From a virus (Duplodnaviria; Caudoviricetes), in IMG/VR virus record IMGVR_UViG_2974628631_000001, positions 32,001-96,000 of that record: a DNA stretch of 64,000 bases, one strand, 5' to 3'. A program made the translations under genes and the position numbers. This document shows positions 14,478-64,000 of the stretch, one piece after another. Below the pieces are notes generated by a model, which saw nothing but the letters and a program-made list of their open reading frames with translations, had not been told where the DNA came from and ran no database searches. The first letter of the stretch is position 1. Each line of letters starts with the position of its first letter.

Positions 14478-14583
14478 GGGCGGGGGAGCTTGCTCCCCAA
14501 GCTTGTACCGCACTACAGGACATGGTACAATGGTAGAAGCAGCCTCAGAGAAGGCTCAACTAATACTAGGAGATATATAAACA

Positions 14584-15300
14584 ATGGCACGAATTAAGGG
14601 ACTCGCTTCCATTCAGGCAAACCAGAAGGCGCAGCAGGAGCGCGCTGAGGCAGGCAACCGACCTAAGGCGGACTGGTTTAAGTTCCCTAAGGGTCAGACC
14701 GCAATCGTTGTTCGATTCCTTCAGGAACTCGACCCCGAGATGCGTAATTACCGTGAGGACCGTGGAGTTGGCTTCATTGAGACGGAGCACAATGCACCTG
14801 GTCCGGATGGCTGGAAGCGTCGCGGAATTTGCACCATCGCTGAAGAGGATGGTGGAGAGTGCTACGCCTGTGAGCGTCACAAGCAGAATTACAAGGAGGG
14901 TTGGAGGCAGAAGCAGAACCTCTACATCAACGTCCTTGCTGACCTTGGTGATGGCCCTAAGGTTTACATTCTGACCCGAAATGCAAATTCTGTGTTCTCA
15001 CAGAACCTCATTCAGGAAGCCCTTGATGAGGGAAGCATCACTGATGCGAATTATCGAATCACCAAGACTGGTGAGGGTACGACTACTCAGTGGTCGTTGA
15101 AGCGTCTGAAGGATGAGCCTTTCGATGACAGCAAGGTTGAGGTCTTTGACCTTGAGGCTGCTGCGGTTCGTAAGGTAGAGTATGACAAGCAGGCCGAGTA
15201 CTACGGTGCAGTTTACCAGGAGGACACCACTCCTGCCGCATCTAACGGCTCTTCTCAGGCTCCACGTGCTTCCGCTTCTAGCGCTGACGACGAGTGGTAA
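14584..15300 (+). CDS. single-stranded DNA-binding protein (gp32-like)
   Basis: VRFL...CYAC...ITKTGEG; acidic tail ADDEW; strong RBS. Confidence 0.75.
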   Translation: MARIKGLASIQANQKAQQERAEAGNRPKADWFKFPKGQTAIVVRFLQELDPEMRNYREDRGVGFIETEHNAPGPDGWKRRGICTIAEEDGGECYACERHKQNYKEGWRQKQNLYINVLADLGDGPKVYILTRNANSVFSQNLIQEALDEGSITDANYRITKTGEGTTTQWSLKRLKDEPFDDSKVEVFDLEAAAVRKVEYDKQAEYYGAVYQEDTTPAASNGSSQAPRASASSADDEW

Positions 15301-15316
15301 AATGACTTGGTAGAAC

Positions 15317-15346
15317 GGCCCCGGATTGAAAAGTCCGGGGCCTTCT
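15317..15346 (+). terminator. stem-loop terminator after SSB
   Basis: GGCCCCGGA-ttgaaaag-TCCGGGGCC followed by TTCT. Confidence 0.65.
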
Positions 15347-15361
15347 GCTATAGTGAAGCTT

Positions 15362-15661
15362 ATGACGTTTGAATTCAGTACAGAGTATAAGACGTACATC
15401 AAAAGCCCTAAATGGAAGAGAATTTGTTCCAGATATTGGGCGGTTTATGGACGCAAATGCCAAGCTTGTGGCAAGAGAAGAGAACTTCACGTCCATCATC
15501 ACACATACGCAAGGTTCGGTAGAGAACTCTTGACAGACCTGACTGGCCTGTGCCATGATTGTCATAGACGTGTTCACCAGAGGCACAGAGCAAACCGGCG
15601 GGTTTCGCTTGAATTGGTGACTAAGCAATACGTACAAGCAATGAAGAATAAAAAGCTCTGA
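15362..15661 (+). CDS. HNH endonuclease
   Basis: CQACG...LHVHH..Y...LCHDCHRRVH. Confidence 0.85.
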   Translation: MTFEFSTEYKTYIKSPKWKRICSRYWAVYGRKCQACGKRRELHVHHHTYARFGRELLTDLTGLCHDCHRRVHQRHRANRRVSLELVTKQYVQAMKNKKL

Positions 15662-15705
15662 TTCATAAGCCTTTAAGAATCAGATGAGATTAAGGAGAAA
15701 AGGCT

Positions 15706-18996: not shown

Positions 18997-19044
18997 TATG
19001 CCTGCCCCTTCGGGGGCGGCAAGCTTATCCTTAAGGAGGAAACA

Positions 19045-41086: not shown

Positions 41087-41092
41087 GTAGTT

Positions 41093-41635
41093 GTTGGTCA
41101 GTACGAGTTAGCTGAATGGTAACTCACGTAGGCGCTCTATTAGGCTGACCAAGCTTGTACCCAAACGAACCATACGCTGTAAGTCCCCCTAGTCGTCACG
41201 GACGAAGGGGCAGGGCAAAATTTCCTGGCCAAGGGTGGTTGTAGGGTATTGACAGTTCGCACGTGACTCTGATACTGTCAAGTTGTAGCACACGGACAAG
41301 GCTTAGGCGGATGGAACAAGCCGGTGGGATGCGAGTGGTGATGCTACAATAACACGGGAAGTAAGCCATCTATACCTAAGACACTGCTTCCTAAGTTGCT
41401 ATCCATAAGGTAATAAACCGTGAGGGAAACCACAGCGGATAATCTTTCCCAGCTAGGTATAGACGTGGGTACCTGAGGATGGCAAGCTTCTACAGCAGGC
41501 AGGTCGAACGCCTTAGACAAGTATTCAGGGCAATGAATAAAGATAGTAGCACCCATTCGACAGGGTATAAAGCTACCGCCTGATTGAATACACGCTGTAG
41601 GCTGTGATAGCGACCGGAAAAGCTATCACAAGCTT
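41093..41635 (+). ncRNA. candidate polycistronic array of ~7 structured RNA modules
   Basis: No + strand ORF; abutting closed stems joined by AAGCTT/AAGTT linkers. Confidence 0.6.
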
Positions 41636-43506: not shown

Positions 43507-43524
43507 GAAAGCCCTTCGGGGCAT

Positions 43525-45007: not shown

Positions 45008-45056
45008 TATGTGCTGGGAGGAAACTCCCAGCAAGCTTGTCTAACTAAGGAATGAA

Positions 45057-46402: not shown

Positions 46403-46449
46403 AATGCGGCGGGTTGTTGTTTAGACCCGCCAAGCTGAAAGGAGATAAA

Positions 46450-47391: not shown

Positions 47392-47457
47392 ACGATTGGG
47401 GCTTCGGCCCCAAGCTTGACAGACCACTACAAAGTCTGTTATGATTGATAACATCGA

Positions 47458-47541: not shown

Positions 47542-47571
47542 CTTTATCGTTAATTACAAGAGGGGAATGTA

Positions 47572-47751: not shown

Positions 47752-47792
47752 CAAAACGGCGGGGTTCGCTCCGCCAAGCTTGGGAGGTCATA

Positions 47793-48979: not shown

Positions 48980-49279
48980 CTTACAGCCCCGGAAACGGGG
49001 CTAAGCTTTTGAGAGAGGGTGGTAAAATGGCGAAGACCAAGTGGGTGCCAGTAGGAAATAGGATGATGGACAGAGCTTATCTGAGAGATGGCGATGTCGT
49101 TCATACTGGTGAGGCTCTGCTACTTGCGCTTCTGTTTCACGCTAAGGGTAAGACCAAGCGTAGTCAGGATGAGCTAAAGCAAGTCTCTAAGATGCTGGAT
49201 GACCCTAATCTCAACAAGAGGACTCCCCGCAGAAAGAAGTGATTCTTTCTTGGCGGGGTTTTCCCGTTTTAGGAGTAAT

Positions 49280-49621: not shown

Positions 49622-49653
49622 CTGTTCCGCAGAGGAAATTATTAGGAGTATTC

Positions 49654-50558: not shown

Positions 50559-51025
50559 TGGTAACGTATGTCAAGGGTGATGCGACCAAGCCTCAGGGTG
50601 ATGGTCCTAAGATTATTGCCCATGTGTGCAATGATAAGGGTGGCTGGGGTGCTGGATTCGTCCTTGCTCTGAATAAGCTTTCTCCGAAGCCAGAGCAAGA
50701 GTACCGTTCTTGGTACAAGAGTCACGCCTTTCCCTTTCTGCCTCTAGGTAAGACTCAGTCTGTTCGCGTAAGCGAAGACCTTTGGGTTTACAATATGATT
50801 GCTCAGCATGGTACAGTGAGTAAGTTGAATCCCCAACCACTTTCTTACGAAGCACTTGAGATTGCTCTTGAAAGACTTGCTGCGGAGGCTGAATATATGA
50901 ATGCGACAGTTCATATGCCCCGCATTGGTTGCGGTCTTGCAGGTGGTAAGTGGGATGTGGTAGAGTCAATCATCAACCGAACGCTTACACTTCGTGATAT
51001 TGACGTAACAGTCTACGACCTGTAG
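50558..51025 (+). CDS. macrodomain ADP-ribose hydrolase (Poa1p/TARG1/DarG-like)
   Basis: VKGDAT, IAHVCNDKGGWGAGF, MPRIGCGLAGGKW. Confidence 0.9.
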   Translation: MVTYVKGDATKPQGDGPKIIAHVCNDKGGWGAGFVLALNKLSPKPEQEYRSWYKSHAFPFLPLGKTQSVRVSEDLWVYNMIAQHGTVSKLNPQPLSYEALEIALERLAAEAEYMNATVHMPRIGCGLAGGKWDVVESIINRTLTLRDIDVTVYDL

Positions 51026-51082
51026 GCTGCTGGGGAGGAAACTCCCCAAGCTTCATTGGTACAACAAGAGGAGAAATAACCA

Positions 51083-53002
51083 ATGCGACCTAACACTGCA
51101 ATTGCCGAGCGTCAGGGTGACCTTGGTGGTGAAAAGGTCCAGATGACCTTTGACCAGAACAGTCTTGCTCACCTGATGTCTGTTCTGACCGACCTGTATT
51201 CTGACCCTGAGCTTGCGGTAATTCGTGAGTACAGCACCAATGCCTATGATGCACAGCTTCGTGCAGGAGTTGTTCGGCCCATTGAGGTTGTTACTCCCAA
51301 TCAGCTTTCGCCATTCTTCAAGGTGAAGGATTATGGCATTGGAATGAATGCAACCGATATCCGGGAAATTTATTCTCAGTACGGTGCGTCTACTAAGCGT
51401 GACAGCGATGACCAGGTTGGTATGCTTGGTCTCGGATGTAAGTCTGCTCTGACTTACACCAATAGCTTCACTGTTTCCGCAGTTAAGGATGGTGTAAAGA
51501 CTCTGGTTGTTGTTTCTCGTTCTGAGGATGGCTCTGGAGTTATGGAGATTCTTTCTGAGGCTGAAACGACTGACCCGAATGGTGTCGAGATTATCGTTCC
51601 GGTCAAGAGTTACAATCAGTTTGAACAGAAGGCTAAGAACTTCTTCCGATTTTGGGATGAAGATACTGTCCTTCTGAATGGAAAGCCTGTTCAGCGTATT
51701 TCTGGCCGGGTTATCTCTGACAATATGCTCATCGCTAATGGTCTCAATCAGGACTATGTTGTTATGGGTAATGTTCCCTACCAGATTAGCTCTGGCTTCA
51801 GTATTTCAAATCGTGGCTATGGATACCAGAATGGCGTTGTGGCTCGTGTGGAAATTGGAGACGTGAGCTTTACACCTTCTCGTGAGGCGTTGCATTACAC
51901 CATTCGTACCAAGGAGACTATTAAGAGGCTCCAGGACGAATATGCGGCGGGTATCAAGGATGCTCTCCAGCGTGACGTTGATGCAGCAGAGAATAGCAAG
52001 GATGCTGTTATGGCATACTTTGAGTGGTCAAAGATTCTCTATGGTAGTGTCCAGCGTGCTCCGAAGATTCAGTACAAGGGCAAGGAGATTCCGACTCATG
52101 TTCGGTCTCGCAACTTCCTTTACAAGATGACGAGTTCGCGGTATGCTGTACAAGAGGGAACGGGCCTCTATCTTGACAACATGATGGACGTTCCGGTAAT
52201 TCACGGATTCAAGTTCAACAAGGTTGCTTCCCATCACCGTGAGAAGATTCGTCTGTGGTCTTCCAAGACGGGTATTACCTCTCACAGCGTCATTCTGGTA
52301 GATGAGGTTCCCGAGGATTACAAGAATTGGGTTGGTGAGGACCAGCTTTATTCTTGGGAAGATGAAGTCAAGATTGTAAAGAAGGACCGGCCGAAGGTTG
52401 TACGTAGGGAAAAGGTCGAGTACACTGTATATCGTGAGGGCACTGCCCGACGAGAAGACATCACCCTTGACGAATTTCCTGACGTTGAGATGGTCCTTGT
52501 TTCAGCTCCAGAGTTGAAGAGTGTGGATTATCACTGGTTCAATACTTTCAAGGAGCTTTTCCCTGACACGATGATTGTTCGGATTCCGACAACTCGTTGG
52601 GCAAAGTTCGAGCGGGATTTCGGAAAGACTCAGTCTCTCCGTGACTTTCTTGAGGAGAAGAGCCAGGATGCGGCAGACCTTCTTACTGAAGATGACAAGA
52701 CGTACATGCACCTTGATTGGCACGCGCGTAGGGCTCTGCCCCGACTTGATGACAAGAAGATTGATGACCCGCAGCTTGCTCGGTTCATTCGAGTAACCCG
52801 CCGGGATGGTGAGTCTAATGAAATCAAGAACTACAAGCGTATCAATTCTCTTTGCTCTGGTATTCATGCCAAGCAGATTGATGTAGAGTATAAGGCATAC
52901 AGTCCATTCATTGACTACCCTCTTTTGAGTGGACTTGGTGACAACAAGAATGATGTTTATTCTCATGCGGTCATCTATGTAAATGCTGTATACAATTCCT
53001 AG
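51083..53002 (+). CDS. rIIA-like protein (GHKL/Hsp90-like ATPase)
   Basis: LYSDPELAVIREYSTNAYDA, DYGIGM, YGASTK, GMLGLGCKS. Confidence 0.88.
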   Translation: MRPNTAIAERQGDLGGEKVQMTFDQNSLAHLMSVLTDLYSDPELAVIREYSTNAYDAQLRAGVVRPIEVVTPNQLSPFFKVKDYGIGMNATDIREIYSQYGASTKRDSDDQVGMLGLGCKSALTYTNSFTVSAVKDGVKTLVVVSRSEDGSGVMEILSEAETTDPNGVEIIVPVKSYNQFEQKAKNFFRFWDEDTVLLNGKPVQRISGRVISDNMLIANGLNQDYVVMGNVPYQISSGFSISNRGYGYQNGVVARVEIGDVSFTPSREALHYTIRTKETIKRLQDEYAAGIKDALQRDVDAAENSKDAVMAYFEWSKILYGSVQRAPKIQYKGKEIPTHVRSRNFLYKMTSSRYAVQEGTGLYLDNMMDVPVIHGFKFNKVASHHREKIRLWSSKTGITSHSVILVDEVPEDYKNWVGEDQLYSWEDEVKIVKKDRPKVVRREKVEYTVYREGTARREDITLDEFPDVEMVLVSAPELKSVDYHWFNTFKELFPDTMIVRIPTTRWAKFERDFGKTQSLRDFLEEKSQDAADLLTEDDKTYMHLDWHARRALPRLDDKKIDDPQLARFIRVTRRDGESNEIKNYKRINSLCSGIHAKQIDVEYKAYSPFIDYPLLSGLGDNKNDVYSHAVIYVNAVYNS

Positions 53003-53057
53003 GAATTGTGCCCCTTCGGGGGCAAGCTTCCCGAAAAGATATCTAAGGAGATAAACA

Positions 53058-53987
53058 ATGAGTTTCCCTTTCAGCATCTTCCGTTTCTCCGAGTCCGATG
53101 AGGTTAACCTTACCGCCTTCGTGGATGGACAGATGTATTCCGCTACGGATTCTCACCCGAATTACGAGCGAATTAAGGAGATGTGTGAGGCAGGCAATGA
53201 GGACGTTGTCTCTCTGTTTGACCTTTCCATCACTGCACAGCGACGATTCGAGCGTCTTTCTGAGCGAGTCAGCATTACTTCCGGCCGGATTTACTTTGAT
53301 GGCGAAGAGGTAGACAATGCTCTTACTCAGCAGGTTGTTCGATTCATCAATGAGGGTGTAGAGGACTTCAAGCCTCTCGTTCTGTTCTTTGAGAAGGTGC
53401 AGACGAACCCAAATTCCCATTCTCAGGAGCAGCTTTACCGCTGGCTTAAGGACCGTTCCTTCACTATTAACCAGGATGGCAACATTGTTGCTTACAAGGG
53501 TGTGAAGAAGGTTACGGCAGAGCACGAGTACGAGAGTATTTCTCACGGAACTGCCATGGTTAATGGTGTTGAGCACACGGGTGGAATTCCTAACCCGCTT
53601 GGCGCTGTTGTGGAGATGCCTCGTTCTGAGGTTCAGCACAACCCTAGCGTTGGCTGTCACACTGGTCTGCACGCTGGTACGTGGAATTACGCGTCCGGAT
53701 TTGCTCAGGGTGCGGTTCTGACTGTTGAAATTAATCCACGCGATGTGGTTTCTGTTCCGACCGATTGCCAGGACCAGAAGATGCGCGTTTGTCGCTACAC
53801 TGTGACTGGTGTCACTGAGCAGGAGCTTGGCAGTTACATCACTGACGAGTATGATGAGGACGAAGAGGTTGAGGGTGTTGACCTTCCGAAGGAGACTCCG
53901 GAGCCTGTGAAGTATCAGCAGGTTGACTGGCTGACTTCTGTGCCGTATCCTTATGACGACGATGATGAAGAGGACGACGTTTTCTGA
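53058..53987 (+). CDS. rIIB-like protein
   Basis: DG..VAYKGV...VEMPRSEV....CHTGLH...VEINPRDVVSVPTD..KMRVCRY. Confidence 0.9.
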   Translation: MSFPFSIFRFSESDEVNLTAFVDGQMYSATDSHPNYERIKEMCEAGNEDVVSLFDLSITAQRRFERLSERVSITSGRIYFDGEEVDNALTQQVVRFINEGVEDFKPLVLFFEKVQTNPNSHSQEQLYRWLKDRSFTINQDGNIVAYKGVKKVTAEHEYESISHGTAMVNGVEHTGGIPNPLGAVVEMPRSEVQHNPSVGCHTGLHAGTWNYASGFAQGAVLTVEINPRDVVSVPTDCQDQKMRVCRYTVTGVTEQELGSYITDEYDEDEEVEGVDLPKETPEPVKYQQVDWLTSVPYPYDDDDEEDDVF

Positions 53988-54407
53988 TTCATCTGCCCCT
54001 TCGGGGGCAAGCTTATTACTACATAGGAGGAACAGTGACGGTTGCAGAATTGATTGCAAAGTTGCAGACGTATCACAACCAGGATGCTAAGGTTAAGGTC
54101 CGAGTTGACGATGGATGCGGTTGTTGTTCAAGCGGCGGGACGTATGAAGATATTGAGGTTGATGTTGTAGACGGAGAAATCCGAATTTCTGACTGATATA
54201 CTCGCCTCTTCGGAGGCAAGCTTGAAGGGAGGGTGCATGATTGACCCTGAAGACTGGTTCCCCGAAGAGGTTTTGGATGAGCTTGAAGAAGTTGATGCAA
54301 GCTTGTATGATATCCTTCCTGAGGAACTGATTCAGTATCTAGAGGATGCTGAAGATGACCGGAATCATTGGGACCGTTATGACGAGATGCCTTGGAATGG
54401 ATAAGCA

Positions 54408-55181
54408 ATGAAGATTATGGTTCTTGGTGACACTCATGGTGAGACGCAATGGACTAAGGACATTGTAAAGCGGGCTCATCGCATGAAGGTCGAAAAGATT
54501 ATTCAAGTAGGTGACTTTGGCATCTGGACTCATGAGGCTGAGGGTCACCGCTTTCTGGATACTGTCAATGAAGAACTCCGCCGGGTTGGCATTAAGATGT
54601 ACTTCGTTGGCGGCAATCACGAGAATTGGGACCATCTTAACTGGTTCCAAAAGAACAACGCCAAGAGTGGTGACGGACACACGTACATTCGTTCACACAT
54701 TCTGTATACTGGACGTGTTCACCGCTGGACTTGGGGCGAGAAGGGTTCCGAGAAGATTTTTCAGGCTGTTGGTGGAGCTGTCTCCGTTGACAAGAACTGG
54801 CGAACCGTAGGAAAGACCCTGTGGCTCGATGAGGAAATTCCTGAGCCTGTCGTTTATGGTCTGGAGAAGGCTGGTCGCCAATGCGATTACCTTTTTACTC
54901 ACGATGCGCCTAGCTGCGTTCCGATGAGTAATCTGAAGCCTGACATGGATTCGGCTCGTCACCGTGGTTACATGGACCGAATTGGGCGGGCTGTCCGACC
55001 CAATCTTTGGTTCCATGGTCACTACCACAAGTGGATGGAGTACAGCTTTATGCATCAGCAGGGCTATGCTTTCGTCTACGGTCTTGACCGAGACTTCCAG
55101 TTCTACAGCTATGTTATTCTTGACACTGATAGTGACAACGTAACTACTGCAACTGGCAAGGTTGTGGAGCACGGAAACTAA
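54408..55181 (+). CDS. metallophosphoesterase
   Basis: GDTHG, VGDFG, GNHE, THDAP, HGHYH. Confidence 0.88.
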   Translation: MKIMVLGDTHGETQWTKDIVKRAHRMKVEKIIQVGDFGIWTHEAEGHRFLDTVNEELRRVGIKMYFVGGNHENWDHLNWFQKNNAKSGDGHTYIRSHILYTGRVHRWTWGEKGSEKIFQAVGGAVSVDKNWRTVGKTLWLDEEIPEPVVYGLEKAGRQCDYLFTHDAPSCVPMSNLKPDMDSARHRGYMDRIGRAVRPNLWFHGHYHKWMEYSFMHQQGYAFVYGLDRDFQFYSYVILDTDSDNVTTATGKVVEHGN

Positions 55182-55268
55182 GCATTTGCCATTTGAAAAC
55201 ATTTCCAATACAATGAAATGTATGGAGGTTAACGCCTCCGATAGATTTTGAGGAGGTGTACAATTCAA

Positions 55269-55706
55269 ATGGCAAATGAAGAGAAGAACGAGTCACGTAT
55301 TCTTTCTGACGATGAGCGCGCTGCTGCTCTAAAGGAGTCTGACGCTCGTGCTGCGAAGAAGGATTACAAGCCTGTTACTGCTCAGTCTGCTGTTGCGGTT
55401 CACGGACCACACGGCGTTGAGGAGGCTGCTGCAAAGCGTGCAAAGGATGCTGGTGTCATCGACCCTGCGTTCGTAAACTATGCAGAGGCTCTAGAGAATT
55501 ACCAGGCTCGTCCAGACGTTGAGCCACTAGATGAGCGTCGCGCTCGTGAGGGTGGACGTGACTTCCAGGCTGCTGCATTCCGTCGTGAAATTGGTGGAAC
55601 AGACAACTCTGGAGTAACCACTTCTGAGGACGTTGCTACTGGAGCGGCTGAGGACAACAAGGACAACAACAAGACTGTTGCTGCCCGTAAGCCTTCCGCA
55701 AAGTAA
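55269..55706 (+). CDS. hypothetical protein
   Basis: GAGGAGGTG RBS; followed by terminator. Confidence 0.65.
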   Translation: MANEEKNESRILSDDERAAALKESDARAAKKDYKPVTAQSAVAVHGPHGVEEAAAKRAKDAGVIDPAFVNYAEALENYQARPDVEPLDERRAREGGRDFQAAAFRREIGGTDNSGVTTSEDVATGAAEDNKDNNKTVAARKPSAK

Positions 55707-55720
55707 GCGTTGTTATTCGT

Positions 55721-55763
55721 AAAAAGACCGGGGTTGACAAAGCCCCGGTCTTTTGCGTATACT
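55721..55763 (+). terminator. bidirectional terminator overlapping a promoter
   Basis: AAAAGACCGGGG/CCCCGGTCTTTT; TTGACA(55734)-18-TATACT. Confidence 0.7.
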
Positions 55764-55779
55764 ATAGAAACACAAACGA

Positions 55780-55852
55780 AATCCCTTAGCTCAGTTGGCA
55801 GAGCGCTGGACTTTTAATCCAAGTGTCGTCGGTTCGAGTCCGACAGGGATTA
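55780..55852 (+). tRNA. tRNA-Lys(TTT)
   Basis: Loop CTTTTAA. Confidence 0.88.
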
Positions 55853-55922
55853 CTCTTGACACGCCTGTGTCAAAAATGTTAAGATGCATGTATGATGCAA
55901 TTTGAACGAAAGGTAAGGACTT

Positions 55923-56159
55923 ATGCCTAATCTCGATTACAAGGCTGCCCACAAGTTTGTCAAGGAGCAGCGCCGGATTGGTAATGCTGTTCGCTGGGAT
56001 GGCTGGGACATGGTATTCTGGAAGCCGACTCGACATGGCTTCACGAATGTCAACGGAGCCTTTGATAGGGACAAGGGTCGCTGGGGCGTAGAGTCCCGAG
56101 TTTCCGTCAATACAGACGGTGTTTGGATGGTCCCTAAGAAGAATGTCAAGTCTGCTTGA
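55923..56159 (+). CDS. hypothetical protein
   Basis: AAGGA RBS; WDGWD motif. Confidence 0.6.
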   Translation: MPNLDYKAAHKFVKEQRRIGNAVRWDGWDMVFWKPTRHGFTNVNGAFDRDKGRWGVESRVSVNTDGVWMVPKKNVKSA

Positions 56160-56451
56160 GGAATTCGGGCTAGACCCGGAGGATTTCGAATGGCAAGACT
56201 TGGCTCTATGCTCTAGTATGCCGACAGCTTTCTTCTATGATTCTTATGAGTCAGACCAGGAAACGGCAAAGTCTATTGACCAAGTCTGCCTTCGATGTCC
56301 TGTCATTAAAGAGTGTTTCTTTGCAGGTGCTAGAGGGGAACACGGAGTTTGGGGCGGGTTTTATTGGAATGGCTCTGGTAGCCCAGACAAGAATAAAAAC
56401 TCCCACAAAACTGATGAGGTAAAAGCGGAGATTCTAAGGAGGGTAGAATGA
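56143..56451 (+). CDS. WhiB-family transcription factor
   Basis: WQDLALC...AK..CLRCPVIKEC...GVWGG. Confidence 0.9.
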   Translation: MSSLLEEFGLDPEDFEWQDLALCSSMPTAFFYDSYESDQETAKSIDQVCLRCPVIKECFFAGARGEHGVWGGFYWNGSGSPDKNKNSHKTDEVKAEILRRVE

Positions 56452-56705
56452 GTCAATACTCTCCTGAAGTACAGCGAATCTTCAAGACGATGAAGTCTCC
56501 CTATCAAGGCTTCATCGTGGATATGGTAGAATATCCTGACTACCTTGCACTACGGGTCTATAAGCCTAACATTGAAGAATTCAGCGAGATGCAAAAAGTA
56601 GCTCTCGCTGAATATCTGTTTCAGCTAAGAGATACAATTAGGTCAGAAGAAGTCAAGTGCCACATTGAGGGAGTCACTGATGCACCACCTTCTGGAAAAC
56701 GATAA
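56448..56705 (+). CDS. hypothetical protein
   Basis: Coupled ORF. Confidence 0.55.
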   Translation: MSQYSPEVQRIFKTMKSPYQGFIVDMVEYPDYLALRVYKPNIEEFSEMQKVALAEYLFQLRDTIRSEEVKCHIEGVTDAPPSGKR

Positions 56706-56870
56706 GCGTTACCCTCGCATTCTTATGATTGAGGAGAACGTCATCGGACATCTTGTCCAGCGCAATGCGTATTTTTCGCGGGTTAAGTACAGCATTCTTG
56801 GACATGAATACAACATTGAGGTAGACAACGATGAATATCTGGAGCTGCCTCAGATTGGATATGAGAGCGA

Positions 56871-57119
56871 TTGAGCGAGTCGGTTGTTTGTGCTTGCTGC
56901 GGAAGGCAGCACAATGAGCTACGTGCCCAGAACTCCAGACTGATTGCCGGAAATAAGTTCTTCGCATGTCCGTCATGCAAGGCAGACAAGAAAGAGCCTC
57001 GCGCTTACGTTATTCTTGTCGGCAGGGCTTCCGGTCCTGATTCAGTGACAGACTACATTTTGAACCGTCGATACTGCGGGGATGAAATTCTGGCCAAGGA
57101 ACTGGTTACAAGGCGTTAA
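56871..57119 (+). CDS. zinc-binding hypothetical protein
   Basis: CACCG...CPSC. Confidence 0.55.
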   Translation: MSESVVCACCGRQHNELRAQNSRLIAGNKFFACPSCKADKKEPRAYVILVGRASGPDSVTDYILNRRYCGDEILAKELVTRR

Positions 57120-57148
57120 AACTTAATAGGCGGGTTTTCCCGCCATAC

Positions 57149-57221
57149 CCCCGGTTAGCTTAACTGGTAAAAGCAGCGTACTTATACTACGTATTTATGA
57201 GTTCGAATCTCATACTGGGGA
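57149..57221 (+). tRNA. tRNA-Ile(TAT)
   Basis: GCGTA-CTTATAC-TACGT; canonical D and T arms. Confidence 0.82.
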
Positions 57222-57271
57222 CCTAGAAAGTATGATTGGACTTTTAAGCGTCAAAACGTTATACTTTAATC

Positions 57272-57703
57272 ATGTCCAGACTAGTGAGTTTCTTTAAGGC
57301 TGTGGCTGAACGTCCCACTGAAGCAATCGAAGGAATCATCGCTACGGCGGTATTTCTTGTTGGCTTGTGGTTCATCAGTCCCTTTTATGAGCCTACTACA
57401 TCTGTGCAATCCCAAATTTGGGAAAGTGCAAATATCCCACAGTTTACTGGTGTCTTTCAGGCATTGGTTGCAGGAATTCTCCTATTTGCTCTGGTCAGAA
57501 AGGGTTGGGCAAGAAGGCAAATGGTTCGTCGGCAGGCGACATTTGCCATTTTCATTCTCTACCTGTTTTACGGACTCTCTTCCACCATGATTCTAGGAAT
57601 GGGGAGGGTTTCATGGGTGGCTACATTCGCTCTTGCTCTTATCTCGGGTGTGGCACATCTAAGGCTAAAGTGGGAGGAGGGTGAAGCCAATGCCAGAGAT
57701 TAG
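57272..57703 (+). CDS. 4-TM membrane protein
   Basis: Four hydrophobic segments. Confidence 0.7.
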   Translation: MSRLVSFFKAVAERPTEAIEGIIATAVFLVGLWFISPFYEPTTSVQSQIWESANIPQFTGVFQALVAGILLFALVRKGWARRQMVRRQATFAIFILYLFYGLSSTMILGMGRVSWVATFALALISGVAHLRLKWEEGEANARD

Positions 57704-57986
57704 TCAGGCGTGGCTAGCCCTGCTGGGTGCTTTGCTTGGTGGTTCTGGACTCAAGATTATTGAGTATTGGCTAAATCGCTCGAAGGTGAGGGAAGATGCT
57801 GCTGCGCAGATGCGTACTGAGCTGAGAGATGAAATCAAAGTTCTCCGTGAAGAATTGCGTACAGTTGAAGACGAACTTGACAAGTGGCGCGGCAAGTACT
57901 ATGAATTGATGGATGAGTTCATGAAGGCCAAGAGTGACCTAGCTGAGGCTCTAAGCCGTGCACGCAACCAAGCTAACGAGTCTTGA
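57690..57986 (+). CDS. membrane-anchored coiled-coil protein
   Basis: N-terminal TM + heptads; GGAGGAGG RBS. Confidence 0.7.
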   Translation: MPEISQAWLALLGALLGGSGLKIIEYWLNRSKVREDAAAQMRTELRDEIKVLREELRTVEDELDKWRGKYYELMDEFMKAKSDLAEALSRARNQANES

Positions 57987-58156
57987 CGAGACGCGAGAAG
58001 CTGTGTATAGTAGTAGATGCGAGTGGGAGAGAGACCCACAAACTTTTCCGGCGGGGTGAGGATGAAAGTCTGTAGAAACACCGGATGCGAGCGGAGCGCA
58101 CAATCTCCGCATTAAGCTTTTAAACGATTATGTAGTAGAATGGTTACGGAAGGGAG

Positions 58157-58441
58157 GTGCCTAATTTGGCATTTTACGCCGTTAACTCATTCTACTACAA
58201 TGAGGAGACTGGAAACATGTTCCTCTATCTGACTAAGCCTACAGAGGTTTCTTACGAACACTCATCAGAGTATCTTCCTGAGGACATCTTTGAGGCTCAG
58301 ATTTTCCTTGATGGAGGAATCGCTTTGATTGGAAAGAACCGACCACCTTCCCAGGATGGTACAATTCCTGGTGGAATGTATGGTAGAACAGCAAGTCCTA
58401 GCGATGACACAGTTAACCCTCTAGAAGACGCTCCCGAGTGA
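58157..58441 (+). CDS. hypothetical protein
   Basis: GGAGG near start. Confidence 0.55.
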   Translation: MPNLAFYAVNSFYYNEETGNMFLYLTKPTEVSYEHSSEYLPEDIFEAQIFLDGGIALIGKNRPPSQDGTIPGGMYGRTASPSDDTVNPLEDAPE

Positions 58442-58513
58442 CTTGACAGAGCTTAAGACGCTCTGCTAGAGTATAGATACAAGGTAAGGCAACCGCCCAA
58501 GAGTTGCCAACAT

Positions 58514-58586
58514 GCTCCCGTAGAGTAAAGGTTATCTCGCTTCCCTCTCAAGGAAGAGACTGCCGGTTCGAATCCGGTCGGGAGTG
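58514..58586 (+). tRNA. tRNA-Glu(CTC)
   Basis: CTTCC-CTCTCAA-GGAAG. Confidence 0.9.
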
Positions 58587-58923
58587 CAAATCGTTTCTGG
58601 TTGACATATTAAAAGGTTGCAACCACTCCAGAAATGGTCTAGGCTGAGTAGGAAACATTACGAACCCTCAATAGCCGATTCACGTAGTATACAGATGAAT
58701 ACTAACCGTGAATTTTGTGAAAACTGCCGACACCCTCTCGTTCCTTCAGAAGGAAAGTGGGACAATGTGGATTATCCGGATTGGGCGTGTGATGGAGTTC
58801 TGACTTTCGAGCCGGACCCGTTTGCACAAGAAATTCATGATGACCACAGTAACTACTGGAATTGTGATGGAGGGAGATACGAGTCGGCAATGGACATTTG
58901 AATATCGGGCCTTCGGGCCACAT

Positions 58924-58998
58924 GCCCCGGTAGATTCTGCTGGTAGAATCGTAAGACTTTCAATCTTGAGTTCGCGGGTTCGATTCCCGTCCGGGGTA
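58924..58998 (+). tRNA. tRNA-Glu(TTC)
   Basis: TAAGA-CTTTCAA-TCTTG. Confidence 0.88.
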
Positions 58999-59129
58999 CA
59001 ATGAATAGCTAATGTTTCTGATTTCGAATAGGGAATTGCAGCTATGCAGGAGGCCCAAGATACTAGTTAGGGTAACAGATGTTGCATGACGGCTTCGGAC
59101 ATCTTTAAACAATCAGGAAACCGTCACCA

Positions 59130-59200
59130 TCCGGCGTAGTAAAATGGTATTACATCTGCTTGCCAAGCAGAAAGCGCGAGTTCGATTCTCGTCGCCGGGA
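59130..59200 (+). tRNA. tRNA-Gly(GCC)
   Basis: TCTGC-TTGCCAA-GCAGA. Confidence 0.88.
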
Positions 59201-59245
59201 CTTCTGGGGCTTACATAAAGTAAGTCCCTTTTTCATTGGAGTGAT

Positions 59246-59446
59246 ATGAACTTCGTTACTCTTTGGAAGGATAAAGACGAATCAACTGGCATCACCCTGC
59301 ACTATGCAGGAGATGCTACAGTTCTGGAAAGCTCTATTCTTCCAATTAAGGCTCACTATTTTGAAACTAATAGTGAAGCAAAGGAATTTATTATCAAGCA
59401 GGCTTACGCCTTGCTTTCTCTTGGATATGAGGTCCATTCAGAATGA
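59246..59446 (+). CDS. hypothetical protein
   Basis: GGAG RBS. Confidence 0.5.
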   Translation: MNFVTLWKDKDESTGITLHYAGDATVLESSILPIKAHYFETNSEAKEFIIKQAYALLSLGYEVHSE

Positions 59447-59967
59447 TTCAGCTCAATTCTCGTGTGAAGATTAACGAGACCTATTCCGGCGGGATTCCTG
59501 ATGTCATCGGCAAGGTTGGCAAGGTTCAGCATGTTGCCGGAAACGTCTTCCAGCTCACTGTGACTGGAAAGGTGGAGAGTCAATATTACCGTGGTCACTT
59601 CTATGACTATAACGTTCTCGCCACCCTCTCAGAAATTGATGAGGTCCCGTACAACTTCAAGGACATGGAAGGCAACCTGGTTGAACTTGGTGATACTGTC
59701 GTGTATGGTAGCAACAAGGGTGACATGACCAAGGGCAAGGTTGTTGACATCAAGGACTTGACTCATGTACGATGGGGAGTCGATAAGAAGGAGACCAAGT
59801 TCCAGCTTGAGTACGAGGTTGATGAAAACCTGTATGATGGTGTTGAGCGTAGAGTTGCCAAGATTATCACCCGCCGAAAGTGGCTGAGTGAGGGTCATCG
59901 CACGCTTATTGTTCAGAAGGGACTCTCCAGTTATTTCCCTGGGGAGCTGATTATTCAAGATGCCTGA
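59443..59967 (+). CDS. hypothetical protein with two SH3/KOW-like modules
   Basis: NSRVKI..IGKVGKV; LGDTVVY..KGKVVDI. Confidence 0.55.
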   Translation: MIQLNSRVKINETYSGGIPDVIGKVGKVQHVAGNVFQLTVTGKVESQYYRGHFYDYNVLATLSEIDEVPYNFKDMEGNLVELGDTVVYGSNKGDMTKGKVVDIKDLTHVRWGVDKKETKFQLEYEVDENLYDGVERRVAKIITRRKWLSEGHRTLIVQKGLSSYFPGELIIQDA

Positions 59968-60154
59968 CAGACAGAAGAAGCCAAAGCCGATGGGTAATGG
60001 AAACTACACAATTTGCAGGAAGTGCCACGGCTTTGGTACAATCGTAGAAACGAAGCACTACCGAGGCAAGGTTCTTGCCAACAAGAACAACGAAGTTGAC
60101 CTCTTCATCAGATGTCCAAAGTGTCTTGGTGGAGGCTGGACAGTCGCCAAGTAG
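59960..60154 (+). CDS. DnaJ-type zinc-finger microprotein
   Basis: CRKCHGFG / CPKCLGGG. Confidence 0.6.
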   Translation: MPDRQKKPKPMGNGNYTICRKCHGFGTIVETKHYRGKVLANKNNEVDLFIRCPKCLGGGWTVAK

Positions 60155-60166
60155 TGTGCTATGATG

Positions 60167-60268
60167 GATACATCGGGTCGGAGATAAACGGTTATCATGG
60201 ATGAAATTGACTAACGCTCGATTGGGTTTCGATACCCGCTCCGTTTGTCACACCACATCCGATGTATC
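60167..60268 (+). ncRNA. Y-RNA-like RNA 6
   Basis: GATACATCGG/CCGATGTATC; GGGTCGGAG; GATAAACGG/CCGTTTGTC; GGTTATC; T-loop-like GGGTTTCGATACCC; TGCTATGAT -10 upstream. Confidence 0.7.
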
Positions 60269-60272
60269 TAAT

Positions 60273-60343
60273 GCGAGTGTGGTTTAATGGTAGAACAACA
60301 GACTTCCACTCTGTTAGTCGGGGTTCGATTCCCCGTACTCGCT
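60273..60343 (+). tRNA. tRNA-Gly(TCC)
   Basis: ACAGA-CTTCCAC-TCTGT. Confidence 0.9.
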
Positions 60344-60408
60344 CGAAACGAATGTCCCCGCTGGTAAAAACTAGCGGGGCTTCGTTGTTTCTATGGTAAG
60401 ATGGAGTC

Positions 60409-60606
60409 ATGGAAGAGATTGTTTCGTACAGCTTTGCTGTAGATATTTACAAGACGGAGTCTGGGACGTATGCTTACGGAGTGTTCCAAGAGCTAGAGTC
60501 TGAGACTGAAGATGACCTACAGTTGCTAGAAACTGGCGAGGCTGATACACTAGCTGAAGCTGCTGACATGGCAAGCAAGAGTATCAGAACGTTGTTTTCT
60601 GTGTGA
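60409..60606 (+). CDS. acidic hypothetical protein
   Basis: GGAG RBS. Confidence 0.55.
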   Translation: MEEIVSYSFAVDIYKTESGTYAYGVFQELESETEDDLQLLETGEADTLAEAADMASKSIRTLFSV

Positions 60607-60632
60607 CTTCTGACCCTTTCGTAAAGGGTCTT

Positions 60633-60705
60633 TCCCCTGTGGTCTAATTGGCAGTGACGCCGGGTTTTGGTCCCGGAAGTTCGAGTTCGAGTCTCGCCGG
60701 GGGAG
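60633..60705 (+). tRNA. tRNA-Gln(TTG)
   Basis: CCGGG-TTTTGGT-CCCGG. Confidence 0.88.
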
Positions 60706-60739
60706 CGCTCATATTGATGGTTACTATCTTGGAGTTTCA

Positions 60740-60970
60740 ATGCCTGAATGGATGATTGGACCGATTGTTGTTTACATCATCGGCGCACTTCTCATGATGT
60801 TCTGGTGCATCCAAGAACTGAGTTATACTATTGGTGATAACTTTATCATCGAAAAGTATGGCTCATATCGTGGAAGTACGATTATCACACTGATGGTTGC
60901 AGGTATGATGATTTTCTGGCTGCCCTTCATTATCGTAAGATATGCTTGGGGAATGATTAAGGGCCAGTAA
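60740..60970 (+). CDS. 2-TM membrane protein
   Basis: Hydrophobic; FWLP motif. Confidence 0.55.
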   Translation: MPEWMIGPIVVYIIGALLMMFWCIQELSYTIGDNFIIEKYGSYRGSTIITLMVAGMMIFWLPFIIVRYAWGMIKGQ

Positions 60971-61016
60971 CCATCTGGGGCATACGCCCCAAGCTTTGTC
61001 TAAAAAGGAGAATAAA

Positions 61017-61526
61017 ATGTTTGACTGGATTCCGTTCGATTCTGTCCTGTTCTGGATTTGGCTTGCGGGATTCATCCTGCTTTCGCCAATTGTCTTCTTC
61101 GCTTGGATGCTCAATTCAGCATTCCTCGGAGATTCCACGGACAGTTGGTATCGGACCTACATGTTTGTCTGGTTTACTTTCCTGGGATTTGTGATGACTT
61201 GGCTCTGGCCTATCGGTCTTCCTCTGTTCCTGGTATTTGAGGCAAACAGTAAGCGTAAGTCTCGTAAGTGGGACAGGATTTACAAGTACAAGAAGGCTAC
61301 CGTCCCGCATTACTGGGAAGAGGCTTACATCAGGAATTCCAAGGTGCTTGATGGTGCCAAGGTTCGGATTCTTGACTGGGAAATTGAGCCCGGAATGACC
61401 CGTGTTTCTTCTTGGGATGGTAAGTTGATTACAAGGACTCACTTTCTTAAGCATGTGAAGCAGGCGGTTCTTCTTTGGCCTACTAAGGACCTTGAGCTTA
61501 TTCCTGAAAAGGTTAAGAAGGTTTAG
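61017..61526 (+). CDS. membrane protein
   Basis: AAGGAG RBS; 2 TM segments (LWP) + soluble tail. Confidence 0.6.
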   Translation: MFDWIPFDSVLFWIWLAGFILLSPIVFFAWMLNSAFLGDSTDSWYRTYMFVWFTFLGFVMTWLWPIGLPLFLVFEANSKRKSRKWDRIYKYKKATVPHYWEEAYIRNSKVLDGAKVRILDWEIEPGMTRVSSWDGKLITRTHFLKHVKQAVLLWPTKDLELIPEKVKKV

Positions 61527-61574
61527 TAGAGTGGCCCTTCGGGGCCAAGCTTTCAACTACATAGAGGAGATAGA

Positions 61575-61883
61575 ATGAAGGTCCTGATTGTACTTGCTCT
61601 TCTTGCGGCCTTCCTGTATCTTAGGGAGCGTAACCGTGGCATTAGGGCAGCACGAAAGTCTCGTGAGCGCCTTGAAGCCCTGAAGAAGGGTGAGAATTAC
61701 GGCCGGTGGTTTACCATCGCTAGCTCACTTGACGAAGAACGTACCTACTATGGTAAGGTAATCAGGTGGGATGTTCCAGAAGACCCCCGAAATGTTGCTG
61801 AGCTTTATTGTGTAGAGGGTTCTAATCCTGATGGATGGACACCATCCTTCCTGTGGTATAAGGATGACCTAATTCTTCAGTAG
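61575..61883 (+). CDS. membrane-anchored hypothetical protein
   Basis: GAGGAG RBS; N-terminal TM. Confidence 0.6.
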   Translation: MKVLIVLALLAAFLYLRERNRGIRAARKSRERLEALKKGENYGRWFTIASSLDEERTYYGKVIRWDVPEDPRNVAELYCVEGSNPDGWTPSFLWYKDDLILQ

Positions 61884-61944
61884 CATTTCTGCCCGGATTA
61901 CGGGCAAGCTAGCATTAACAACTGCCAATAGTTAGGTTAAGATA

Positions 61945-62145
61945 ATGATTGCATTGCTTATGACCATCTACCTCATTGGTGCCATTGTAATGGGAGCGTA
62001 TGTTCTCTTTGCAGCTATGATGGGTGCGATGTTTGGTACGCTTCCTGTTTCAGACCTTTTGAAGGTGCTCTTTGTCGCTGCCATTTGGCCCGTTGCGGTT
62101 ATTTGGGGAGTTGGCAATGTGCTCTATCAGAAGGTAAGGAACTAA
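61945..62145 (+). CDS. 2-TM membrane protein
   Basis: Hydrophobic; IWP motif. Confidence 0.55.
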   Translation: MIALLMTIYLIGAIVMGAYVLFAAMMGAMFGTLPVSDLLKVLFVAAIWPVAVIWGVGNVLYQKVRN

Positions 62146-62739
62146 ATGGATTTCAAAGAACTACATGAGGCTATTCCTTATGCAACTGGAGAAAAGCTCC
62201 ATGTAATGGAAATGAAGCCTTATGCCAACATTACCCTATCAATGCCGGGTCGTCATCAAAATGACACTGACCCAAAGGGCGGGGATTTTGTTGTAATGGT
62301 TGACAGCTCTTCTCTTGGATGGGTTAAGCATCAGTTCACTCATGGTGACCTATGGGATGACCTTGAAAAGAAGAAGGTCGCTGATAATGCCAGAGCGGAA
62401 CTTCTCATGAAGGAGTATGCTAAGGTAGTCAGAGGAGCTGAGCCTAATTGGCAGCCGCTTCCCTCTGGACAGTCAGACCCTTGGGCTGCTACACTAGACC
62501 CAACAACGTTCCTTCATGCAGTACAGTGTTTGGCAGTAGCCGAACATCGCCGGTACTGGCCTCATGAGTGTCAGGGTGGTGGAAGGTACTTGCCAGCACG
62601 GTTCTCAATGGGTATCATTGAATGGTACTGGACAGCAGAAGACGCCAAGGCTTATCAGTATCGTGGTCGTCAAGGACTTGAGAATCTAATCAAGGAAAAG
62701 GGACGACCGACTCCGCTCAAGAAGTATGCCGAGAGCTAA
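62146..62739 (+). CDS. hypothetical protein
   Basis: 197 aa ORF with AAGGA RBS. Confidence 0.65.
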   Translation: MDFKELHEAIPYATGEKLHVMEMKPYANITLSMPGRHQNDTDPKGGDFVVMVDSSSLGWVKHQFTHGDLWDDLEKKKVADNARAELLMKEYAKVVRGAEPNWQPLPSGQSDPWAATLDPTTFLHAVQCLAVAEHRRYWPHECQGGGRYLPARFSMGIIEWYWTAEDAKAYQYRGRQGLENLIKEKGRPTPLKKYAES

Positions 62740-62781
62740 AAACTCTGGGCATTTGGACCCTTTCGTAAAGGGGTCCAAGCT

Positions 62782-63048
62782 ATGGACAATCTAGATGAAA
62801 TCGCAGAGGAACTTGAAAGACATTTCTTGGTCCACAATTATGAATGGAAGTTCGAATACGGACTTTCCAACCCCGATGCTGACGACTTGAAGAAAGCCAT
62901 TCAGAAGGCTGTAATTATTCTTGAAGCTCAGGAAGGTGACACCAATCTAGAGGTTGGTCATCTGCTCTTTACCAAGAGAGCAAATGTAATTGACATCTTC
63001 GTCCATACCGGAACAATTGGAGAAAATAGTGAAGACAGCAGTGTATGA
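62782..63048 (+). CDS. hypothetical protein
   Basis: ORF directly after stem-AAGCT element. Confidence 0.55.
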   Translation: MDNLDEIAEELERHFLVHNYEWKFEYGLSNPDADDLKKAIQKAVIILEAQEGDTNLEVGHLLFTKRANVIDIFVHTGTIGENSEDSSV

Positions 63049-63511
63049 GTACACGCACCGGACCAACGTTGACAGCTCTCTTGCTGATGTGGTCTATTAC
63101 AACGCCACGAATTACACGATGGCTATCCAGTTCAAGAACAACGGTTACAGCACCCCGAGCGTTTTCTACGGCAGCGTTCCTGAGGTTTTCTATGACCGAC
63201 TGGTAAAGGCTGACAGTCTCGGCAAGACCTACAACATGTTCGTCAAGGACAAGTTGCCGAACCTTTCTGGTGGTACGGTTTACGATGTCACCTACACTCT
63301 TGCGGGTGAGGCAGACAGTGAGCCTATCGTTGACCAGAAGGTTGCAACTCCTGAGACAATGCGGTATCGTGTAAAGGGTTATGTCCGACACGTGGGAACG
63401 TTTGAGGCCGATAGTCTTGAGGAGGCACGGGAGTTCTTCCTTGACAGTCTGGTTGAAGACGGTTACGATGCTTCGGACCTAGCCGTTACGGAGGTATACA
63501 TCGTTGAGTGA
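63029..63511 (+). CDS. KTSC-domain protein
   Basis: VDSS...V.Y....M.IQF...Y..VP...Y..L..A.S.G..YN..VK. Confidence 0.65.
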   Translation: MKTAVYEYTHRTNVDSSLADVVYYNATNYTMAIQFKNNGYSTPSVFYGSVPEVFYDRLVKADSLGKTYNMFVKDKLPNLSGGTVYDVTYTLAGEADSEPIVDQKVATPETMRYRVKGYVRHVGTFEADSLEEAREFFLDSLVEDGYDASDLAVTEVYIVE

Positions 63512-63815
63512 AGTTCGTAAGGCTCAGTCTTTGGCTGAGCTTACCGAAATCATCAATAGCAATGATTCGGTTGTTGTTGATTTCAGCAAGTCTGAGGGTT
63601 GTGTTTATTGCAAGAGGCTTGCCCCGCACTTTGAGAAGGCTGCGGCAAAGTCAGATGTACCATTTGTTGAAGTTGACTTGCTAAATGTCACTGAGGCAAT
63701 TGAAGCATTCGGAATTCAGTCAGTGCCAACAGTGCTACACTTCAAGACTGGGGAGCCTACTGCTACCCTTTCTGGCCGAACATCTGTTAAACTTCTTCAG
63801 GAGATTAGCGGCTGA
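63504..63815 (+). CDS. thioredoxin
   Basis: VVVDFS..CVYC..LAP; GIQSVPT. Confidence 0.88.
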   Translation: MSEVRKAQSLAELTEIINSNDSVVVDFSKSEGCVYCKRLAPHFEKAAAKSDVPFVEVDLLNVTEAIEAFGIQSVPTVLHFKTGEPTATLSGRTSVKLLQEISG

Positions 63816-64000
63816 TTTCGGGCGGGTTCGTAAAGGACCCGCAAGCTTTCTACAGATTGGAAATCTCATGGTTGAGAGCTACGACCTTGCCCTGGTAAAG
63901 GGTAAGTCCTTCTACGGTGACAGCTACGCTGAAGTTCTTCAGTCGGTCGCAGACTTTGCGAAGGAAATGGAAGCCTATACAATTGTGTCCGTCAATATGG

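Follow-up and report, generated by a model that had tools for sequence, protein, structure and literature searches.

A hairpin followed by AAGCU as a possible RNA 3'-end signal in Streptomyces phages of the subfamily Loccivirinae

What is the role of a short hairpin that recurs between the genes of a phage and is followed each time by the same few bases? The question is raised by a 64,000-nucleotide stretch of DNA (the window) comprising bases 32,001-96,000 of the 125,726-bp virus record IMGVR_UViG_2974628631_000001, a genome with direct terminal repeats. An initial annotation of the window described about 21 sites where AAGCT(T) abuts a GC-rich stem, and interpreted them as endoribonuclease sites or, alternatively, as non-canonical terminators or cassette boundaries. 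The analysis presented here demonstrates that hairpin + AAGCU is a real, strongly non-random and lineage-limited RNA-type signal located at the 3' end of ~50 units per genome. We tentatively propose, with a probability of about 0.42, that the element forms a hairpin-protected RNA 3' end via a cut in the tail AAGCU(U).

The hairpin association, and not the frequency of AAGCTT, constitutes the real signal, since the bare hexamer is merely mildly enriched in the window (30 copies versus 20.06 +/- 4.63 in shuffled sequences, with at least 30 copies in 2 of 100 shuffles). Over the whole genome, AAGCT or AGCTT directly follows 35 of 192 GC-rich hairpins on the plus strand and 0 of 192 on the minus strand. 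Scored from the side of the pentamer, with a hairpin regarded as adjoining when it ends at positions -1 to +1 relative to AAGCT, the association is found for 49 of 206 plus-strand copies versus none of 236 minus-strand copies; the best unrelated pentamer among all 1,024 has 11 hairpin-adjoining copies in the same test. The distribution of the 49 elements is uneven, with 45 located within genome positions 76,000-119,500, the right-hand 43 kb. The window holds 17 simple hairpin elements, and a search of it found none that the initial annotation had overlooked. Eighteen of the 21 sites listed there are sound. The strict test is passed by 16 of them (14499, 41630, 45033, 46432, 47412, 47776, 49003, 51048, 53024, 54009, 54218, 60991, 61547, 61906, 62777 and 63843), the site at 19021 has a bulged hairpin of -19.1 kcal/mol, and at 41151 AAGCUU is found directly 3' of the closing stem of a 60-nt structured module. 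In contrast, the site at 41484 folds weakly (z -1.0), and no stem abuts the hexamer at 34099 (z +0.38) or 40247 (z -0.12).

The position of the element relative to genes is characteristic, and agrees with the earlier description of a signal that follows a stop codon and precedes the next ribosome-binding site. The hairpin starts 4-8 nt past the upstream stop codon in 34 of the 49 genomic elements, and a start codon with a ribosome-binding site is found downstream in 40 of 49, at a distance of 11-79 nt (11-33 nt in 33 of 49). The spacing to the stop codon is tight and that to the start codon is loose; therefore, the element belongs to the upstream unit. In addition to genes, it closes non-coding modules. 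Among the gene junctions of the right arm, 45 of 116 bear an element, and this fraction reaches 32 of 44 for junctions with a gap of 40-70 nt. These junction counts, like the interval and gene-content counts given below, depend on a crude gene caller.

The structure of the element was described on 248 copies from five genomes, the studied one and four relatives introduced below. The stem has a median length of 7 bp (range 5-14) and the median fold energy is -12.4 kcal/mol. Tetraloops close 175 of the hairpins, and 125 of these belong to the GNRA (79) or UNCG (46) type, the extra-stable loops of RNA; together with the strict gene-strand orientation, they point to a signal acting at the RNA level. 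The stems vary, as had been stated initially, whereas the part that is fixed proved to be C + AAGCU rather than the complete hexamer: position -1 is C in 46 of 49 elements of the studied genome and in 233 of 248 overall, and the sixth base is T in only 39 of 49 and 200 of 248, respectively. No conserved positions beyond the hexamer were detected among the 49 elements, either downstream or further upstream. When post-stop hairpins were chosen without any motif requirement (366 in the five genomes), 205 were followed by AAGCT and ~15 by a one-mismatch variant; the 146 other hairpins include a few true elements whose stem swallowed the AAG. The reported lack of a U-tract holds, as there is no T run after the tail. 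Instead of the 7-9 nt U-rich tract of a canonical intrinsic (L-shaped) terminator, AAGCU(U) is followed by C/G-rich or mixed bases, and a scan for T-tract terminators is passed by one window element alone (60976).

The studied phage is a Streptomyces siphophage of the BE2/Loccivirinae group. Its nearest deposited relatives, likewise siphophages infecting Streptomyces, belong to the subfamily Loccivirinae ('BE2' type) in the family Stanwilliamsviridae; among them are Blueeyedbeauty and Beuffert, which show ~87% identity across 84-87% of a 10-kb test stretch. By the same test, elements number 55 in Blueeyedbeauty, 52 in Beuffert, 43 in MeganTheeKilla and 49 in Circinus; these four BE2 relatives are not mutually independent, which applies to all conservation and breakpoint counts in this work. 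The outgroups have almost none: 0 in Peebs and 2 in Karimac, two phages of the Boydwoodruffvirinae ('BE1') isolated from the same host species as the BE2 phages, and 1 in the Rhodococcus phage Dorin, and pattern counts agree. The BE1 phages close their genes with ordinary hairpins and TTTTGC-like tracts; the studied phage has ~7 ordinary hairpin + T-tract terminators.

Within the BE2 lineage, the element is retained at 85 of the 90 positions for which a homolog of the preceding 200 nt exists in a relative (35 of 36 in Beuffert, 39 of 39 in Blueeyedbeauty, 9 of 11 in MeganTheeKilla and 2 of 4 in Circinus), and one of the Circinus misses is a detection failure, the element being visible by eye. 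The flanks at orthologous positions are 81-84% identical, so that, without constraint, about one pentamer in three would be expected to persist. The hairpin itself changed its sequence in 60 of the 85 orthologous pairs. In 31 pairs of equal architecture, 22 base pairs are changed: both bases are replaced in 11 of them, and the other 11 involve the gain or loss of a G-U pair. Thus, the stems vary with compensating changes and C|AAGCU remains fixed. An 898-kb Streptomyces atratus plasmid contains 3 + 3 copies of SSCAAGCTT versus 23 + 12 copies of the reversed control pattern; to the extent that one replicon can show it, the element is therefore not something that host-type DNA carries in general. 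Full-text searches of the literature, with supplements outside their scope, revealed no description of a hairpin + AAGCU element, and the preprint on the Loccivirinae phage Byblos makes no mention of a terminator, stem-loop, hairpin, promoter or RNA-seq. The signal is apparently undescribed so far. A separate strand bias was observed for AGCTT, the reverse complement of AAGCT: outside the elements, it is over-represented on the plus strand relative to a Markov expectation (z 1.9 to 7.1) in all eight phage genomes compared, including the BE1 phages and Dorin.

From the anatomy, strand, position, conservation, covariation and lineage limits observed here, we infer RNA cutting, together with a likely cut position and cutting agent. 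According to the proposed mechanism, the element would punctuate long rightward phage transcripts and sit at the 3' end of an expression unit, which can be a small gene or else a non-coding RNA of small size. It would combine a highly stable hairpin, variable in sequence, with a fixed single-stranded tail AAGCU(U). An endoribonuclease would cut within the tail, most simply between G and C (AAG|CUU), leaving the upstream RNA with the hairpin and 2-3 nt as a 3' end shielded from 3' exonucleases, and the downstream RNA would begin just 5' of its own ribosome-binding site. The tail could be read by the host RNase E, which is the leading candidate, or by a factor specific to this phage subfamily. 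The endoribonuclease site of the initial annotation is thus supported in part: the evidence favors an RNA-level 3'-end signal, whether made by cutting or by termination.

Two further observations are consistent with cutting. The right arm contains 32 strong plus-strand promoter-like sites, 18 of them inside called genes, and among the 33 intervals between these sites, 14 hold at least two elements and one holds seven. If this promoter map is roughly right, polymerase reads through many elements, and they are therefore not efficient terminators. Second, 5 of the 30 tRNAs of the studied genome are preceded by a GC hairpin whose last base lies 1-6 nt ahead of the RNase P cleavage position at their 5' end (random control: mean 0.93, maximum 5 in 300 trials). 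The same holds for 10 of 32 tRNAs in MeganTheeKilla, for 12 of 42 in Peebs and for 9 of 44 in Karimac. Endonuclease-made, hairpin-capped 3' ends therefore seem to be a habit of this phage family. Where a gene borders on a tRNA, the cut comes from the tRNA; where two genes meet in BE2 phages, it may come from the pentamer. Individual hairpins, often with a UUCG loop, were noted 2-5 nt before tRNA 5' ends at 39280-39294, 42780-42796, 43508-43524, 48345-48360, 57129-57148, 58490-58513, 58905-58923 and 60612-60632.

The candidacy of RNase E is based on its cleavage preference. The actinobacterial (mycobacterial) enzyme prefers RR|CNU in vivo and in vitro, according to Zhou et al. (2023, PMC10641625); actinobacterial RNase E is also treated in a preprint by Rapiejko et al. 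(2026). AAG|CUU matches this single-stranded context, with T at +3 in 200 of 248 elements. The annotation of Blueeyedbeauty includes WhiB-like and Lsr2-like regulators, two RNA ligases and a polynucleotide kinase, and no phage RNA polymerase is annotated there. A classical RNase III site was considered and rejected, as the median stem of 7 bp (range 5-14) is too short for the near-perfect duplex of about two helical turns that is needed.

Several observations weigh against cut and protection as the function of the element, in particular by RNase E. The pentamer is much stricter than RR|CNU, as indicated by the 205 exact copies and ~15 one-mismatch variants among the 366 post-stop hairpins. The free +2 base of RNase E (here U) is near-invariant, whereas its preferred +3 U is T in only ~80%. 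The BE1 phages grow on the same hosts with 0-2 elements, hence the signal is not a requirement of the host machinery. Sense-strand coding DNA shows no shortage of bare AAGCU (147 copies versus 154.9 expected, z -0.6), avoidance being seen in Circinus alone (z -4.1); the tail by itself is therefore not harmful, and the hairpin context or the lack of ribosomes must matter. The promoter map, on which the read-through argument depends, consists of consensus matches and the output of the crude gene caller. Finally, no clear endoribonuclease was found among the 31 of 262 genes that are common to the four BE2 relatives and absent from BE1 phages and Dorin, of which 24 were scanned against Pfam and 22 against PHROGs. 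Most of these 31 genes are of unknown function; the matches comprise an RNase_T-like exonuclease, a second RNA ligase, Macro, HNH, SsgA and KTSC domains, and a sub-threshold DUF4258. The SsgA-family protein is encoded at genome positions 101109-101498 (Pfam E 5e-14), is present in the four BE2 relatives and was not found in the BE1 phages or Dorin; the SsgA family is a regulator of sporulation and cell division in Streptomyces.

The main rival of the cut-and-protect reading is a terminator or attenuator devoid of a U-tract, at whose hairpin the polymerase stops, at least partly, and in which a host or phage factor reads AAGCU, either in the RNA or in the non-template DNA strand, in place of the U-tract; termination instead of cutting would then create the 3' end. 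The elements occupy places where BE1 relatives carry hairpin + UUUUGC terminators, for instance 3' of capsid and tail genes, and in 8 of 49 cases a promoter-like site follows or overlaps the element, which is a terminator-then-promoter layout. Poly-U-less terminators were reportedly described for phage phiC31 by Ingham in 1995. Mapped 3' ends in Streptomyces include a recognised class with a strong hairpin and no U-tract, although no motif is reported at these host ends in the accessible text of that study (PMC8269248). Against termination, mycobacterial RNA polymerase requires a U-tract in vitro (PMC3993855), and the studied phage retains its canonical terminators. With up to 7 elements between promoter-like sites, and no room for a promoter before most downstream genes, the elements could only be weak stops. 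The fixed pentamer is not accounted for by intrinsic termination. On balance, a weak U-less terminator is less likely than a cut-and-protect site, and we regard it as rather doubtful.

The promoter-fused elements form a subset of their own. Two elements read AAGCTTGACA, and five have TTGACA in the top of the hairpin and TAnnnT 17-18 nt further on. The latter five are located at genome positions 97288, 105835, 106150, 107073 and 112565, beyond the end of the window; their stem ends in ..GGTT, the loop is GACA and AAGCT falls in the promoter spacer, so that terminator-like and promoter-like parts are interleaved. The interpretation of the element as a promoter was rejected. A sigma70-like site between the hairpin and +70 is found in 8 of 49 cases versus 3.7 +/- 1.9 (maximum 10) in random windows, and 33 of 49 elements leave just 11-33 nt between AAGCTT and the start codon. 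The T7/SP6-like 'CACTATAGAAG' found after one element is an AT-rich run before a ribosome-binding site, and the spacing of such TA-rich stretches varies. Independently of the elements, plus-strand sigma70-like matches are in excess at genome positions 96001-116000 (48 versus 20.1 +/- 3.7) and at window positions 44001-64000 (44 versus 22.6 +/- 5.0); a perfect TTGACA combined with a spacer of 17 nt is common among them, and several lie within called genes.

Alternatively, the element could be an operator for an RNA-binding regulator, in which a phage or host protein bound to the hairpin base and AAGCU controls translation or decay of the genes on either side and no RNA end is made, as in the precedents of T4 RegA and the coat-protein operators. 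Strict conservation of a pentamer beside a helix with a free stem and loop is what is expected for a protein that reads a few single-stranded bases, and the lineage limit fits a phage-encoded partner, for which the 31 BE2-only genes of mostly unknown function leave room. On the other hand, the 11-79 nt spread to the downstream ribosome-binding site or start is poor for a translational operator, the element also closes non-coding RNAs and precedes tRNA promoters, and no RNA-binding domain was found among the BE2-only proteins scanned. An operator is thus quite unlikely.

A primary role in DNA recombination, with the shared hairpin + AAGCTT serving as short homology for cassette gain and loss as in the PeSL elements, appears improbable. 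In a DNA contig from a close relative (run X1), position 54005 is joined to 54215 with 9 shared letters; the 209 nt between two elements are skipped, and the 53-aa gene between 54009 and 54218 is missing. Among 69 clean presence/absence indels in 20 ordered genome comparisons, both ends lie in two different elements in nine cases and one end does so in 15; the nine represent ~6 distinct events of 186-675 nt, whose aligned ends overlap by 6-32 nt, and the indel of this 53-aa gene is one of them. However, 9 of 69 is close to the chance pairing of junctions, given the fraction of junctions that carry an element. Homology breakpoints with the four relatives fall at junctions with an element in 52 cases, at junctions without one in 53 and inside genes in 50; the excess at elements has p 0.03 if junctions are simply counted, but p 0.28 if their span is taken into account. 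The idea of a cassette boundary thus retains the anecdotal support of ~6 element-bounded single-gene indels, and indels among relatives do end at elements, though no more often than at junctions in general. Furthermore, only 6-7 nt are fixed here, and the one-strand orientation, RNA tetraloops and compensating stem changes are unneeded for DNA recombination. PeSLs of T4-type phages combine a strong sigma70-like early promoter with ~100 bp of conserved sequence, according to Arbiol et al. (2010, PMC2839356). In the studied genome, 41 of 49 elements have no promoter-like site.

The least probable proposal, and a far-fetched one, is that the element acts as DNA on the template of the lagging strand, for instance where priming or nicking takes place: all copies are on one strand, the positive GC skew (above zero over the entire window) would make the plus strand the lagging-strand template, and a hairpin with a short fixed sequence recalls single-strand initiation signals, but 45 of 49 copies are confined to the right-hand 43 kb instead of being spread genome-wide, they lie 4-8 nt past stop codons, and their loops are of the RNA types GNRA and UNCG.

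The cut-and-protect reading can be extended to a more specific and unlikely hypothesis, in which the BE2 phages (Loccivirinae) would possess a private mRNA punctuation code. A dedicated phage factor or a retargeted host factor would cut at any 'stable helix + CAAGCU' and so divide the long early transcripts into ~50 hairpin-capped mono- or bicistronic messages and small RNAs, in the manner of mitochondrial tRNAs, and these units would double as exchangeable cassettes.

Within the window, where nearly all genes are directed from left to right and 30 tRNA genes and one tmRNA gene are present, all elements described below are on the plus strand and end in AAGCTT unless stated otherwise. A 6-bp hairpin with a CUUG loop (14483..14504) is located 3' of a primase-like open reading frame (ORF) and is followed by a sigma70-like promoter, and a bulged hairpin with a UUCG loop (19000..19026) is located 3' of a 1096-aa DnaE-like ORF and is followed by a ribosome-binding site. 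Two elements close structured non-coding modules, one whose closing stem adjoins the hexamer (41092..41156), with a promoter-like TTGACA upstream at ~41058, and one with a 9-bp stem and a 10-nt loop (41603..41635) at the end of the module 41490-41635 (z -4.7). The next are a 9-bp hairpin with a GAAA loop (45012..45038) and an 8-bp hairpin with an 8-nt loop that is followed by AAGCTG (46408..46437). Two 7-bp hairpins with UUCG loops follow. In the first (47396..47417), the TT begins a TTGACA-18-TATGAT promoter for the tRNA-Leu at 47458, and the second (47758..47781) has a ribosome-binding site directly 3'. Two 7-bp hairpins with GAAA loops are found at 48985..49008 and 51031..51053, the latter 5' of a rIIA-like gene, and a 6-bp UUCG hairpin (53009..53029) separates the rIIA-like and rIIB-like genes. 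The 53-aa gene cassette that is absent from some relatives has a 6-bp UUCG element at its left edge (53994..54014) and a 5-bp UUCG element at its right edge (54204..54223). The remaining elements are 6-bp hairpins with AUAC (60976..60996) and UUCG (61532..61552) loops, a 6-bp hairpin with a 5-nt loop and AAGCTA (61890..61911), followed by a promoter-like site, an 11-bp hairpin with a CGUA loop and AAGCTA (62753..62782), and an 8-bp hairpin with a 5-nt loop (63822..63848).

The non-coding region around the tmRNA deserves a separate description. Window positions 40869-41660, 3' of the tmRNA, comprise 800 nt of little coding capacity with two TTGACA-17-TAnnnT promoter-like sites (~41058 and ~41249) and three structured modules, each with AAGCTT at its end; these modules are probably small phage RNAs. 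The earlier notion that AAGCTT links Y-type RNAs ('Y2' and 'Y3') was not confirmed: no Y-RNA family matched positions 39900-41800 in Rfam at E<=1, and the genome has no TROVE match. In Blueeyedbeauty (MH536814, 68050-69666), a Ro-like RNA-binding protein adjoins the tRNA cluster, hence the Ro module is variable within the genus. Upstream, directly 3' of the AAGCTT at 40247-40252, the sequence at 40253-40359 had been called tRNA-like. An acceptor stem, formed by pairing of the 5' TGATGTGG with the 3' CCACATCA, and a T-arm-like GCGGGTATTGAATCCCGC can be recognized by eye together with a long insert, although ARAGORN and Rfam make no call. The sequence may represent a tRNA that is disrupted or carries an intron, or else a tRNA-like RNA.

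A different recurring repeat was observed among the leftward genes of the BE1 terminal repeat, for example at Karimac positions 1182, 5829, 6462, 7235, 7774 and 9702, and also in Peebs. On the coding strand, it consists of a double GC hairpin (UUCG loop) and a conserved tail, roughly GnCAAAAGATCTTG, and would be another lineage-specific 'hairpin + fixed tail'. Regarding expression data, two sequencing runs labelled RNA-Seq are probably DNA, and they carry just short, diverged pieces.

If the element is indeed a cut-and-protect signal, it would be a small and transferable module with which mRNA ends and stability could be set in Streptomyces, a genus of industrial importance for which few 3'-end parts have been characterised. 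In that case, the phages would also be one of the rare lineages that punctuate their RNA by a sequence-specific signal of their own. The contrast of 43-55 copies in BE2 phages versus 0-2 in BE1 phages on the same hosts is an experiment set up by nature, through which the reader of the tail could be sought. For annotation, the element is a precise landmark both of gene ends and of small non-coding RNAs.

Known systems share separate features with the proposed signal. At the RNase III sites of phage T7, and with stabiliser hairpins of the REP type, polycistronic RNA is cut between genes and the upstream piece is protected by a hairpin. RNase III acts on duplexes with a length of at least some 20 bp, whereas the specificity of the present element, with its median stem of 7 bp, would reside in the single-stranded tail. 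In mitochondrial tRNA punctuation, messages are released by endonucleolytic cuts that are guided by structured RNA lying between the genes; the likeness is an analogy only, as most borders here have no tRNA and carry a hairpin and pentamer instead. The poly-U-less early terminators of phiC31, which Ingham is said to have described in 1995, offer a comparison for strong hairpins without a U-tract in a Streptomyces setting.

The resemblance to PeSL elements includes the many intergenic copies of a stem-loop, concentrated in a large lytic phage where its small accessory genes lie, a few indels of single genes that have a copy at either end and, as in some PeSL subclasses, an overlap of the stem-loop with the -35 box, which is found here in a minority of elements. 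The differences are that only 8 of 49 elements here have a promoter-like site, that only C + AAGCU(U) is fixed and that there is no breakpoint excess. The U-less ('I-shaped') 3' ends of Streptomyces likewise possess a strong GC hairpin without a U-tract just past genes; in the accessible part of that report (PMC8269248), no fixed post-stem sequence is given for them, whereas the pentamer described here is invariant and limited to one phage subfamily. With the sites of actinobacterial RNase E, AAG|CUU shares the preferred purines, C at +1 and U at +3, and is likewise predicted to be single-stranded, here beside the stem. The RNase E consensus (PMC10641625) is loose, its sites are scattered and the data are mycobacterial; in the phage genome, an exact pentamer occurs ~50 times, always abutting a hairpin.

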